Assembly (NCBI GenBank): GCA_019056805.1
Contig: DXJG01000002.1
Span: 253,103 to 285,102 of the forward strand
Origin: Candidatus Baldrarchaeota archaeon
GTDB taxonomy: Archaea > Asgardarchaeota > Baldrarchaeia > Baldrarchaeales > DXJG01
Length of the DNA stretch: 32,000 nucleotides
Reading direction: 5' to 3'
A program made the translations under genes and the position numbers. This document shows positions 11,367-15,835 of this stretch, in pieces; the first letter of the stretch is position 1; every line of letters starts with the position of its first letter. Under the pieces are notes generated by a model, which worked only from the letters and a program-made list of their open reading frames with translations, had not been told where the DNA came from and searched no databases.

Positions 11367-12320
11367 TTAAACGTCTTCTATGCCTTGTTCTGTTATTCTA
11401 AAAACTACTTCGCTTTCGGGAAGGTAGGGACTGTCAACTAGTCTGGCTATTCTTCTTTCTTGTTTGCTTTTTCTTAAATATACTCTTGTTGTGCATGAGT
11501 GAGCAAGAATATGTCCACCTGTAGCCTCTGTGGGATCACCGAAGAAAACAGCGGGTCTAGCCATAACTTGGTTCGTTACAACAACAGCTACATTGAAAAC
11601 CTCAGCAATACGAAGCAAAGCATGTAAATGCTTATTTAACTTCTGTTGCCGCTCAGCAAGCATCCCCCTACCGCCATACTCAGCCCTAAAGTGACCCATA
11701 ACACTATCAACAATCAACAAACCAATATTCATCTCAGGAATCAAATCCTTAGCCTTCTCAACAAGCAACATCTGATGATCACTATTATAGGCTCTAGCAG
11801 CTAAAACATTCCTTAAAACTTCTTTCGGATCCAAATTGAATCGCGGAGCCATCTGAACGATACGCTCAGGTCTAAAGGTGCCTTCCGTATCAATATAAAT
11901 AACTCCGCGATCCAAACCACCTTTATCTTCAGGCAATTGCACAGTTACACACAACTGATGGGCGATCTGAGTCTTTCCAGTCCTATATGCACCAAAAAAC
12001 TCAGTAATTCCACGGGTTTCGATTCCACCACCAAGAAGATCATCTAAACTCTTGCTACCCGTAGTAATTCTATGAATCTCCATCCTTTCAGCCCAAACTT
12101 CTTCTGCTGAAACAAAACCAATCCCAACAGCTTTCCTAGCTTCCTCAACAATTTTCGCCGCTACACCTTCGCCAATAGAAAGCGTAGCAGCTAATTCTCT
12201 AGGAGAAGCAACAGCAATTGCTTCAACACTACCAAAACCATTCTCAACCAGCTTCTTAGCTATTGCCGGTCCAACACCAGGCAAATCTTTAATATCCAAA
12301 ACTTTTTTAGTCCGAGCCAC
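11367..12320 (-). CDS. radA: DNA recombinase RadA (317 aa from GTG at 12320)
   Basis: N-terminal HhH DLPGVGPA, Walker [22 protein letters not shown], Walker B LLIVDS, TNQV. AGGAG upstream of the GTG. The ORF-track extension to 12503 overlaps the tRNA and is not real. Confidence 0.96.
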
Positions 12321-12450
12321 AAAACCACAACTCCTAACAATCACTAAAACAACCAAAAAGCAACTTAAAAACCTACCGAAAACTACGACAACACAATATA
12401 AAAAACTATCAAAACACCAATATTCAACAAATAAACCAAATAAAAAACAA

Positions 12451-12644
12451 TGGTCGGCCCGCCGGGATTTGAACCCGGGACCTCTACCGGAATCCAATGA
12501 CAAATTGGATCCTGGCGGTGTCTGCGATGTTCGAGCGGCGGCTAAAGTTAAGTAAACGCCTTGCTAGGCGTTTTCTACAGCTTCGGTCTCCAATTCCCAG
12601 AATGGGAACTGGAGTCGCCCGCTCTGCCACTGAGCTACGGGCCG
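12451..12644 (-). tRNA. tRNA-Tyr(GUA) with three introns and encoded CCA
   Basis: Exons 12644-12616, 12581-12575, 12519-12514 and 12483-12451 join to a 75-nt cloverleaf CGGCCCGUAGCUCAGUGGCAGAGCGGGCGGCUGUAGACCGCCAGGUCCCGGGUUCAAAUCCCGGCGGGCCGACCA. It has C1:G72 and A73 (archaeal Tyr identity) and loop CUGUAGA. Introns are 34, 55 and 30 nt with BHB-like junctions. Confidence 0.92.
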
Positions 12645-12669
12645 GGACTTTTTTAGATCTTGGGGATTG

Positions 12670-12675
12670 TTTTAA
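12670..12675 (-). promoter_or_regulatory. TATA box of tRNA-Tyr gene
   Basis: TTAAAA on the minus strand, 26-31 nt upstream of tRNA position 1. Confidence 0.55.
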
Positions 12676-12971
12676 CTATGTCATAGTGATAGTTTTCATC
12701 AGAATTTATATTTTTTGCGGTTTTTATCTTTGTTTTTTGTTTAGCTGGTTTTGGTTAGAGGTTAAAGTATGTTTTTTCAGCGATTGTGTCTATTGTATCA
12801 ATAATATTTTTCGGGAGTGTTCAATAATTCACCTATACAGCTACTCCACAACGATCCTTAAGCAGCAAAAAAGCCTTAGAAGTGTTCCTGTCTTTTGTTT
12901 TCATCCTTAGGTACTTTTGTTAGGGGGAGAGGAAGAATCGAAAAAGAATTAGAGGTAAAGGAAAGAGTTAG

Positions 12972-13145
12972 ATGTACTCTAAAAAGTTTGTATACAGAAA
13001 AGATTACGAGAGGAAGCTTGGAGAAAAGAGTTTTTACTCAAACTTAGTAAGTAGTATAGTTCTCGTATGTTTAGTTTTGGTTATCTCCCTACTTTATCTG
13101 AGTCGTATCCAGCAAGATAATGTTACATTAAACCAGATTTTTTAA
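12972..13145 (+). CDS. Candidate small single-pass membrane protein (57 aa, not in ORF track)
   Basis: MYSKKFVYRKDYERKLGEKSFYSNLVSSIVLVCLVLVISLLYLSRIQQDNVTLNQIF*: basic N-terminus then an approximately 20-aa hydrophobic stretch. Confidence 0.3.
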   Translation: MYSKKFVYRKDYERKLGEKSFYSNLVSSIVLVCLVLVISLLYLSRIQQDNVTLNQIF

Positions 13146-13225
13146 CAGTATTAAAAATAATATCCGTATCCAATAAAACTAAATATTTTCCTTCCAATCC
13201 TAAAATACTCAATGCTTAATAGTTT

Positions 13226-15835
13226 ATGTGTATGGAGGAGGTTACTCTGAGCATTAAACAAAATATGATGTTCAAAAGAGACCGTAAAAATCTACGTAAG
13301 TACTTTTTCATTTCTGTTATAACTTTCTTACCGCTGTATGTGGAATTTATTTTCTTTGCAAACTCTGCATTCATGGAACCGGTATTCAGTTTCATTCAGA
13401 GCCTAGTTCAGCTTGTTGTCGACTGGAGTAAAACATACCTGCGATTACTCGTAGATAATCCTGTAAATATAATAGCAATGCAAACACCAACAAACAACAT
13501 ATCTAGGGGGACGCCAGTTGAAGAGAGGACAGAGACAGGAAACACAACGGTAAGAGGTAGAGTAATTGGAACAACATCAGCAGATAAGAAATATTCGATA
13601 TGGCATTCACTAAGATACCTAGGAGACAATAATGCATCTGACAAGTTCCCCTCATATACTAGGGCTGCCGTAAACTTAGCAAAGATATCTGCCAAACTTC
13701 ATGCAGCCATAGGCAACAAACATATAGAATTCCTACCCCTAACAACAGAACTCTTAGCGTACAGCACAAATGACGGTGAACTATATTGGGTAAATCTCAA
13801 CGAATATGACCCAAGAAAACCTGTAAAGATCTTTAATAAAAATGGAAACGTAATACGGACCGAATTCATACCTCTTGGGATTTCTAGAAGGATAATATTA
13901 GCGTATAAAGGAGAACATATCGACGGAAAACTTGAGGTTAAGTACGCACCGATCATTCAAGTTAACGTGGAAAGCAGCAACACAAAGCTGTTAAACGAAG
14001 ATACACTGAGAGCAGTATTCAACGAAGAAAAAGGAAATATTCTTTCTTATGATAAGATAAACGAGAACCTAGAGCTATGGGTTAAGGAGTCAGATGGAAA
14101 AGCAAAGAAAGAGTTGATGAATAAAGCCGGATTTCCGCAGTGGCTTCTAGACTATGTTAAGGAGAAAGGAGTCACAGAAGTTTCAGAGTTAACGTACGGA
14201 TCATTAAGGGAAGCTGCTGAACTTGAGTTGAGAAAGAAGAGAGAAGAAAACATACAGGAGAGAGTTAGAAAGGCTCTCATAAATATGGGTTTAAATGTCG
14301 AATTCTCTTCAGACCACACGTTTAACATGGAGTTTAATGGAGTGATAAGCAAAAATCTAGATATTCTCGGAAAATTTGAAAATAAAGAGTTTAAAACGGG
14401 GACAATATTTTTAGGCTCTTCGAAATTTGATGAAAACCTCAACACATATGCCGATAGCAGAAAAGATGCCGATAACTATGTCTCCTTTAACTCAGAAGTA
14501 GCTAAACCACTTGTAGGTGGAGACAAGACATACCCAGATGGCAGATGGTCTTCACAAAATCTAAGAGAGCACTTCAACCCAGACATATACAAAGTTGTGA
14601 GAGAATTCCTTACTACAGAAGTCAAAACATACGCTGAAGAGATGCCTCTAAGCGGATTTGGAGGCTTAACAATATTCCTTAAGAGAACCGAGAAAACAGG
14701 AGGTTATCCTGACTTCTTCTACCTTCAAAGAAAGGCAAGTTCCGTGGGATCACCAATATTGGCAAATCCACTAGGCAGACAAGCCTTAGAAAAAATGGAT
14801 ACGGAAATAACAACGGTATTAAGTCACGCTGTACGTAAAGGCTGTGAAACCATTAAAGTTAAAGATTTTTTAAAGGTTTCAATCCTGCATGCCTACAGAC
14901 TTGCCCTACTTTACGGTTTAGATCCAACTAAAGTTGAATTCAAAATTAAAGGAACTGAAGGACTGAAAATAACTGTAACGCTGAAAGAACTATTCGAAAA
15001 TAGGAAAAAATTCGAAGTTTTCAGCAAGAAGTCCAAAGTAGACTGCATGGTAGTTCCGAAGATGCTTGAGATAAACAGCAAAAGGATCGACGGTAAAGCG
15101 TTAATAGAGGCACTAACAGATCTGAAATTTAACGAAGTTGGAGGCACTGAGGATAAGTATCTAGTGCGAGTTGAAGAATTCCCCAAAATATATGAGAAAA
15201 GCGACGATGAAGAAATAGACTTGGTAATAAAGAAATCTATGTCCGTTGGAAAACCGATAACGAAAACCGTTGAACAAATATTCGGAAAAACACATCTGAG
15301 GGATGTAGGACTTATAACCGAAATCCTTGGAACACATATAGAGAACCATCCGGTACTTAAGCTGATGAGGGAACTAGGACCCCTAGTGGAACCACAAGGT
15401 AACTTCAAAGGTTTACACACTAACATGGCTCTCGCTGCATACAAGTATGCTTTCCTACTTGCAGAGGTTGAAGAACTGATATATACAATAGATAAGAAAT
15501 TAGAGGAAGGTAATCTCAGCAAAGAGCAGGAAATTTACCTAAAGAGGATTAGGGAAGATCTCACTGAACAGAGATACGATTGGATGGACGGAGTCAAAAA
15601 TTTTGTCAAGCAAAAGACAGAGAAAACAACGTATGGAAGACCTACAAACCTCCTCTACAAACTTTCAAGAAGGTTCTTCACAACGAGAATGGAAATCGAA
15701 GAATCTACTAAAATAACAAAGAACTTTAACCTTACTTATGGAGAAGTTAATAGTCCGATACTTCGAAAGAACAACAATATAAACTTTAACTTTTTAATTA
15801 CAAAAGGAGGTATTGTTGTTAACCGATCCAGATAA
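13226..15835 (+). CDS. Large hypothetical protein (up to 869 aa), possible N-terminal membrane anchor
   Basis: 2.6-kb open frame. Basic then hydrophobic N-terminus (KRDRKNLRKYFFISVITFLPLYVEFIFF). No family recognised. Confidence 0.8.
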   Translation: MCMEEVTLSIKQNMMFKRDRKNLRKYFFISVITFLPLYVEFIFFANSAFMEPVFSFIQSLVQLVVDWSKTYLRLLVDNPVNIIAMQTPTNNISRGTPVEERTETGNTTVRGRVIGTTSADKKYSIWHSLRYLGDNNASDKFPSYTRAAVNLAKISAKLHAAIGNKHIEFLPLTTELLAYSTNDGELYWVNLNEYDPRKPVKIFNKNGNVIRTEFIPLGISRRIILAYKGEHIDGKLEVKYAPIIQVNVESSNTKLLNEDTLRAVFNEEKGNILSYDKINENLELWVKESDGKAKKELMNKAGFPQWLLDYVKEKGVTEVSELTYGSLREAAELELRKKREENIQERVRKALINMGLNVEFSSDHTFNMEFNGVISKNLDILGKFENKEFKTGTIFLGSSKFDENLNTYADSRKDADNYVSFNSEVAKPLVGGDKTYPDGRWSSQNLREHFNPDIYKVVREFLTTEVKTYAEEMPLSGFGGLTIFLKRTEKTGGYPDFFYLQRKASSVGSPILANPLGRQALEKMDTEITTVLSHAVRKGCETIKVKDFLKVSILHAYRLALLYGLDPTKVEFKIKGTEGLKITVTLKELFENRKKFEVFSKKSKVDCMVVPKMLEINSKRIDGKALIEALTDLKFNEVGGTEDKYLVRVEEFPKIYEKSDDEEIDLVIKKSMSVGKPITKTVEQIFGKTHLRDVGLITEILGTHIENHPVLKLMRELGPLVEPQGNFKGLHTNMALAAYKYAFLLAEVEELIYTIDKKLEEGNLSKEQEIYLKRIREDLTEQRYDWMDGVKNFVKQKTEKTTYGRPTNLLYKLSRRFFTTRMEIEESTKITKNFNLTYGEVNSPILRKNNNINFNFLITKGGIVVNRSR

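Follow-up and report, generated by a model that had tools for sequence, protein, structure and literature searches.

A tRNA-Tyr(GUA) gene with three predicted introns and two micro-exons in a Baldrarchaeia genome

Triple-intron tRNAs are established for Thermoproteales, in which up to three introns per gene have been described (PMC4033280), as the initial annotation of the present locus had stated. The same annotation implied that such a gene would be new to the Asgard archaea; this is not the case, since a three-intron tRNA-Tyr(GTA) of Atabeyarchaeia is already contained in Supplementary Data 4 of Valentin-Alvarado et al. 2024 (Nat Commun, PMC11291895). In Atabeyarchaeia-1 and -2, the tRNA-Tyr(GTA) gene spans 229 and 204 nt, respectively, and contains three introns; tRNAscan-SE gave one or two introns, manual R2DT inspection three (PMC11291895). 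In Atabeyarchaeia and Freyarchaeia, introns are present in 92–95% of the tRNA genes, and several in more than half (PMC11291895). [quoted passage not shown] For tRNA-Ile(UAU) of Cyanidioschyzon merolae, which has three introns, it was found experimentally that introns 1 and 3 leave before the 37/38 intron (Soma et al. 2013, PMC3728597); one passage of that paper states, citing work on Thermoproteales, that in some archaeal genes the motif of the last intron forms only once the others have been processed. Our search of the literature returned no paper that combines Baldrarchaeia with introns.

We analysed a 32,000-nt stretch of DNA (the window) from an Asgard genome of 1.92 Mb and 91% completeness (the host genome, G000). 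One locus of the window is, in all likelihood, the only tRNA-Tyr(GUA) gene found in this genome, and three protein-spliced introns are the best explanation of its whole structure (Table 1). The coordinates, motif strings and stem lengths of the initial annotation were all reproduced to the base. The TTAAAA element upstream of C1 lies at a position that would fit an archaeal promoter, and the T-rich tract TTGTTTTTTATTT likely acts as an archaeal terminator.

Table 1. Coordinates of the tRNA-Tyr locus and of the two EndA genes. Positions are those of the window, except for the EndA genes, which are given by genome, contig and position.
Feature	Position	Strand	Size	Description
tRNA-Tyr(GUA) gene	12451..12644	(-)	194 nt	four exons and three introns
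Encoded CCA	12453-12451	(-)		3' end of the tRNA-Tyr gene
Exon 1, nt 1-30	12616..12644	(-)	29 nt	acceptor 5' strand from C1, D arm, anticodon-stem nt 27-30
Intron 1, site 30/31	12582..12615	(-)	34 nt	relaxed BHB
Exon 2, nt 31-37	12575..12581	(-)	7 nt	micro-exon GCUGUAG with anticodon GUA; invariant
Intron 2, canonical site 37/38	12520..12574	(-)	55 nt	hBH type
Segment AGCCGCCGCUC in intron 2	12533..12543	(-)		complementary to exon nt 22-33
Exon 3, nt 38-43	12514..12519	(-)	6 nt	micro-exon ACCGCC; invariant
Intron 3, site 43/44	12484..12513	(-)	30 nt	HBh' type
Exon 4, nt 44-76	12451..12483	(-)	33 nt	including CCA; variable loop, T arm, acceptor 3' strand to G72, A73, CCA
TATA-box-like element TTAAAA	12670..12675	(-)		26-31 nt upstream of C1; read from sequence
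T-rich tract TTGTTTTTTATTT	12438..12450	(-)		immediately 3' of CCA; read from sequence
EndA alpha	G000:C9:197884-198387		184 aa	PF01974 and PF02778 above cut-off
EndA beta	G000:C9:13779-14261		178 aa	PF01974 and PF02778 above cut-off

Removal of the three introns leaves a 75-nt canonical cloverleaf with four fully paired stems. It contains one 7-bp acceptor stem, one 4-bp D stem, one 5-bp anticodon stem (GGCGG/CCGCC) and one 5-bp T stem; the anticodon loop reads CUGUAGA and the variable loop is 5 nt in length. U8, A14, G18G19, U33, the T-loop UUCAAAU, the C1-G72 pair and A73 are all present. Folded without constraint, the spliced product adopts this perfect cloverleaf as its minimum-energy structure, at -36.9 kcal/mol.

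ARAGORN called the 75-nt spliced product as tRNA-Tyr(gta). Standard tools either overlook the unspliced gene or miscall it: in default mode, ARAGORN reported zero tRNA in the window, and with introns allowed it returned a spurious tRNA-Trp with a 104-nt intron. The Rfam tRNA model RF00005 matches the unspliced locus from 12644 to 12454 with 38.9 bits, compared to a gathering score of 29, and takes the interior as insertions. Because the standard tools fail on this gene, the genome would appear to lack tRNA-Tyr if the introns were not spliced out by hand.

The C1-G72 pair and A73 form the tyrosine identity set in archaea, which is that of archaeal TyrRS. In the host genome, Infernal gave 37 hits and ARAGORN 12 loci more; of all these, the locus is the sole one with C1 and G72-A73, which argues against its being any other tRNA. 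Two such readings can be written down: Trp(CCA) with one 104-nt intron, which ARAGORN -i reports as Trp(cca) i(33,104), and a four-intron Asp(GUC), since an exhaustive motif search gave one GUC solution with an equal cloverleaf score. However, the Trp model uses intron 3 sequence that is missing from the ortholog in G002, the Asp model requires four introns and a 2-nt exon, and the loop reads CUGUA in 22/22 other Asgard genes of the same acceptor type. We regard both readings as next to impossible. The identification as tRNA-Tyr, together with the three intron positions and the micro-exons claimed in the initial annotation, is backed by ortholog alignment, by conservation and by the ARAGORN call on the spliced product.

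A BLAST search of the locus against 40 related genomes identified full-length orthologs only in three genomes of the same genus (G001, G002 and G003). Two matches in G004 were rejected as orthologs, both being tRNA-Ala, and one search with the exon 1 pattern in 400 Asgard genomes gave no match outside the genus. In the orthologs of G001 and G003, all three introns are present. The ortholog of G002 is without exactly the 30 nt of intron 3 and reads CCGCC↓AGGUCC (here and below, the arrow marks the junction); it represents a natural intron-less allele. The identities of the flanks give the unrooted tree ((G001,G003),G000,G002), with which both loss of intron 3 in G002 and gain in its sisters are compatible. 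DNA contigs of four other hydrothermal-vent/sediment metagenomes contain a divergent copy over most of the gene, with no intron-sized gaps, and no further intron-less allele was found in these contigs. Two joints in metagenome contigs that seemed to skip an intron were discarded, as they fit other tRNA genes sharing the D and T arms.

Across the four genomes, 1 of 75 exon columns is variable, compared to 32 of 119 intron columns (Fisher p = 7e-7). The sole exon variant is U16>C in exon 1, seen in one genome; the variable intron columns comprise 13/34 in intron 1, 13/55 in intron 2 and 6/30 in intron 3, and the flanks vary at 11/21. All three central helices of the proposed splicing motifs are invariant. 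In the proposed helices, 91.6% of the cells are paired, versus 25–46% when the partners are slid by 1–3 columns. Compensatory changes occur at three pairs of the intron 1 stem and at one pair of the intron 3 stem; coming from four sequences only, with the observed score reached in 31 of 500 shuffles, the covariation evidence is suggestive rather than statistically strong.

These comparisons also bear on whether the locus could be a decaying or silent pseudogene, with the working tRNA-Tyr encoded in the unassembled part of the genome. With only 91% completeness, there is room for a second tRNA-Tyr. The check proposed earlier, for another intact copy, nevertheless found no other C1-G72 tRNA in the 91%-complete genome. 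Furthermore, the strong constraint on the exons across four species, whose introns and flanks are drifting, the invariance of the splicing helices and the position next to and upstream of radA in 4/4 genomes all speak against decay. We consider a pseudogene very improbable and continue with the three-intron tRNA-Tyr gene.

To describe the splicing motifs, BHB geometry was computed for each intron, both for the primary transcript and for precursors from which any combination of the other introns had already been removed. By convention, the second base of each 3-nt bulge was taken as the last one before the cut, and the two bulges as separated by one 4-bp central helix (H). The H of intron 1 is CGGG/ACCG, with 3/4 pairs and one conserved G.A mismatch that adjoins the 5' bulge; its bulges are CG↓A and AA↓G, and it is accompanied by one 12-bp inner stem and one 2-bp outer helix (G24-C32 and A23-U33). 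The H of intron 2 is CUGU/GCAG, with 4/4 pairs (one U.G) and the bulges AG↓A and AC↓A. Its inner helix is absent; its outer helix is 1 bp in length before the removal of intron 1 and 5 bp, corresponding to the anticodon stem, afterwards. The H of intron 3 is ACCG/CGGU, with 4/4 pairs and the bulges CC↓A and AG↓A; its inner stem comprises 9 bp, and a true outer helix is lacking. Judged by the G.A mismatch of the former and the missing inner helix of the latter, introns 1 and 2 are predicted to be relaxed substrates.

The same mature tRNA-Tyr could also be obtained from a somewhat different anatomy, either by nested removal of intron 2 or with the cuts of intron 2 or 3 shifted by 1–3 nt. Our motif search does return a nested route, in which one inner 23-nt hairpin (H 4/4, h' 6) is followed by a 32-nt remainder (H 4/4, h 5) and the product is identical; a single cut pair is, however, enough for intron 2. 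The junctions themselves lie in short repeats. That of intron 2 slides by one A (37/38 or 38/39) and that of intron 3 slides within a repeated AGG (43/44 to 46/47), in both cases with the product unchanged. Against a shift, sequence reasoning indicates that the 4-bp central helix is lost in the shifted registers, and BHB geometry was obtained only with the junction registers of the initial annotation. In addition, the 3' end of intron 2, GCAGAC↓A, is common to the single-intron tRNA-Tyr genes of another Asgard family, where a homologous canonical-site insertion ends in GCAGAC. Such a different anatomy is therefore unlikely, and the registers of Table 1 are used in the following.

The motifs of the three introns overlap. 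The H of intron 1 occupies nt 25-28, and that of intron 3 occupies nt 38-41 and so takes in nt 39-41 of the anticodon stem; the outer helix of intron 1 (23-24/32-33) overlaps the H of intron 2, both of which need C32 and U33. From this exclusiveness, it had been proposed that introns 1 and 3 are removed before intron 2. The first half of the proposal stands: intron 1 lies within the 5' strand of the 27-31/39-43 stem and must therefore go before intron 2 has an outer helix, and the motifs of introns 1 and 2 are mutually incompatible as well. The second half is not forced, because intron 3 lies outside this stem and merely competes for nt 39-41; its removal before intron 2 is plausible, but not necessary.

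The pathway that we propose would start from a precursor of about 190 nt with three protein-spliced introns. Introns 1 and 3 would be recognisable in the primary transcript because they carry long inner stems of their own (HBh' type). Intron 2, with no inner helix, would depend on the anticodon stem as its outer helix, so that its motif would be complete only after excision of intron 1; intron 3 might leave before or after intron 2. The (alpha-beta)2 endonuclease would cut within both bulges of each intron, and RtcB would then join the exon ends. We infer the actual cleavage and ligation, as well as their order, from sequence. Nearest-neighbour folding at 37 and 70 °C, applied to the precursor as well as to each partly spliced form, gave the central helices probabilities of about 0–0.1. 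The same folding also scores low for most of the clean single-intron tRNAs of the host genome; because these score equally low, it is unable to rank the splicing order.

Relaxed motifs had led the initial annotation to expect a heteromeric splicing endonuclease of broad specificity, and typing of the host endA genes agrees with this expectation. The genome encodes two EndA paralogs; both consist of an N-terminal and a C-terminal domain, and alpha carries the L1/CSL insert. In alpha, the Tyr/His/Lys triad is present (AVYEHG, GIDHAP and VRKKF); among proteins of solved structure, alpha is closest to crenarchaeal catalytic subunits (3p1z_B, 1.4e-44). Alpha also contains one RKPK-containing insert of 9 residues within the stretch GIRKPKAPSFNKP, which was aligned to the loop region of A. 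pernix and corresponds to the crenarchaeal-specific (L1) loop. Beta is without the loop; it gives its best alignment with M. jannaschii EndA and has Val at the position of the catalytic His. [quoted passage not shown] One gene for the RtcB ligase is also present in the host genome. Of the named relatives of alpha, the closest are found in Candidatus Baldrarchaeota archaeon Yap30.bin4.67, at 90% identity, and in Candidatus Baldrarchaeum yapensis, at 72%, followed by those of Hod-, Hel-, Jord- and Freyarchaeota; that the nearest named EndA relatives are Candidatus Baldrarchaeota MAGs bears out the Asgard lineage assumed at the outset and places the genome in the class Baldrarchaeia.

Beside EndA alpha lies a 414-aa ORF (G000:C9:196562-197806; locus L031 179-1423), which by eye resembles the C-terminal part of a type IA topoisomerase or reverse gyrase. 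The GC content of the tRNA exons is 72%, compared to 35.5% for the genome. Because of this ORF and of the GC-rich tRNA exons in a genome of low GC content, a thermophile is suggested.

Intron 2 contains one segment, AGCCGCCGCUC, whose complement in the exons spans the D-stem 3' strand, nt 26 and the anticodon-stem 5' strand. In all forms from which intron 2 has not been removed, the helix between AGCCGCCGCUC and the exon is the dominant element of the predicted minimum-energy structure; neither the D stem nor the anticodon stem can form alongside it. In several other families, the corresponding intron also contains a segment complementary to nt 22-31, which changes together with the exon: the pair is exon GAGCACUCGG and intron ACCGAGGCUC in family f3, and exon GAGUGCC and intron GGCACUC in family f18. 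The duplex energies are 2 to 7 SD below those of dinucleotide shuffles in f1, f2, f3, f18 and f4, with 6.8 SD for the strongest; in other families, the effect is weaker or absent. Complementary segments were noted in the window (minus strand) and at L128, L131, L146, L153-L156, L163 and L164. Formation of the cloverleaf and of the BHB motif would both face competition from the segment. It may be a structural lock that prevents the precursor from adopting the cloverleaf, and could in this way control the sequence in which the introns are excised, or else an intron-dependent modification, for example pseudouridine 35.

To place the three introns in a wider context, we searched 40 related genomes for a T-loop with G72 and ACCA and, with other searches in addition, recovered tRNA-Tyr(GUA) genes from 22 other Asgard genomes of 14 GTDB families. 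Gap-tolerant pairwise alignment was used, so the insertion boundaries in these genes are approximate. An insertion at or adjoining 37/38 is present in all but one of these other genes, and several contain a second insertion, located in the D loop, near 44/45 or near 47/48; that of family f3 is at about 44/45. Three insertions occur only in this genus among the 23 Asgard tRNA-Tyr genes sampled. The 30/31 intron is likewise confined to this genus in the sample of 23, and the 43/44 intron to 3/4 of its genomes; neither was detected as such in tRNA-Tyr of the 13 other Asgard families sampled. From this distribution, the 37/38 intron, which most of the sampled Asgard tRNA-Tyr genes have in common, is probably old, and a lineage-specific origin is probable for introns 1 and 3. 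Given that the sample shows them in no other genus, the 30/31 and 43/44 introns look like separate gains. BLAST of the three introns against the host genome, performed in search of paralogous copies, gave only chance matches of 11–13 nt, and there is therefore no sign of intron transposition.

Some of the other tRNA-Tyr genes have features of their own. In that of L128 (G004, same order), which is 142 nt in length, a 64-nt insertion in the anticodon loop has two possible readings: a single perfect hBHBh' intron, which leaves an unusual C37, or two introns around a 2-nt exon AG, which leave the normal loop CUGUAGA. The canonical introns of L163 (G027), L143 (G014), L160 (G034), L140 (G028) and L159 (G007) contain CUGA ... 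AUGAUGA / AUGAU-like hairpins, which resemble K-turn/K-loop (L7Ae-binding, box C'/D'-like) elements. This K-turn/K-loop-like motif is absent from intron 2 of the window.

Interrupted tRNA genes are the general state in the host genome, and the tRNA-Tyr gene is an extreme of it. A rough census suggests that about 30/36 tRNA loci carry insertions; uninterrupted length was found in only 5–6 of the 36 loci with intact T arm and acceptor stem. The BHB-driven census cleanly resolved about 20/36 loci and left about 15 that were not, so that the intron counts are rough. In this census, at least one other gene, tRNA-Ser(CGA) at C6:65991-66156, also resolves to three introns. Most of the tRNA genes of this genome are 90–190 nt in length (for example C6:65991-66156, C9:2375-2536 and C6:176414-176564), and the 3' CCA is encoded in nearly all of them. 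It may be that Baldrarchaeia represent one more hot spot of BHB-intron gain, which evolved independently of the others. The joint reading, in which such a hot spot is combined with a structural lock in intron 2, is speculative and we hold it to be rather doubtful.

Homology of the window to the three same-genus genomes ends about 130 nt upstream of the tRNA gene (at about 12777; 12778-13200). The other three genomes share the upstream sequence among themselves, and for this reason it appears that G000 was rearranged, or received an insertion, upstream of the gene. For the 869-aa ORF that adjoins the break (13226-15835, plus strand), no Pfam match was obtained at E <= 0.01. The 137-aa ORF antisense to the tRNA (12497-12910, plus strand) gave no family match and is probably spurious. 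On the other side, the listed start of the radA ORF (11367-12503, minus strand) is a TTG inside the tRNA gene, and no domain is matched before residue 70, where HhH begins. For this reason, the true radA start likely lies further downstream and the two genes would not overlap.

The gene extends heavily interrupted tRNA genes to one more Asgard class; the picture drawn by the 2024 and 2026 Asgard studies and by earlier work on Thermoproteales is unchanged. With its 7- and 6-nt exons and the presence/absence polymorphism of one intron within the genus, it could serve as a compact substrate of natural origin in studies of how motifs that overlap and exclude each other are processed by an (alpha-beta)2 endonuclease from Asgard archaea.

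Among described genes, the tRNA-Tyr of Atabeyarchaeia shares with the present one the isotype, the anticodon, the phylum and the number of introns; the length here is 194 nt. Different from it, the present gene belongs to the class Baldrarchaeia, and the two are likened by the number, not the position, of their introns. The 90-genome census focused on Jordiarchaeia and Atabeyarchaeia, with Baldrarchaeia absent from its main text, and contains no discussion of splicing order or micro-exons (bioRxiv 10.64898/2026.10.13.758758). In Thermoproteales, tRNA genes have up to three introns of the BHB, HBh' and hBH types at noncanonical positions, along with an (alpha-beta)2 EndA that carries the specific loop (Sugahara et al. 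2007, 2008; PMC4033280, PMC4090602); the present gene resembles them in its introns, and the host EndA is predicted to be of the same type. In these organisms, which belong to the phylum Thermoproteota, related introns recur in different tRNAs, suggesting transposition, whereas no paralogous copy was found here. Like the order proposed here, that of C. merolae tRNA-Ile(UAU), also with three introns, has the outer two removed before the one at 37/38 (PMC3728597). The C. merolae gene, however, is located in a eukaryotic nucleus and served by a different endonuclease, and its motifs are each able to fold independently (PMC3728597), whereas the outer helix of intron 2 is here physically split by intron 1. 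Compared to these systems, the new part is modest: it consists of the class, the particular intron positions and the polymorphism within the genus.
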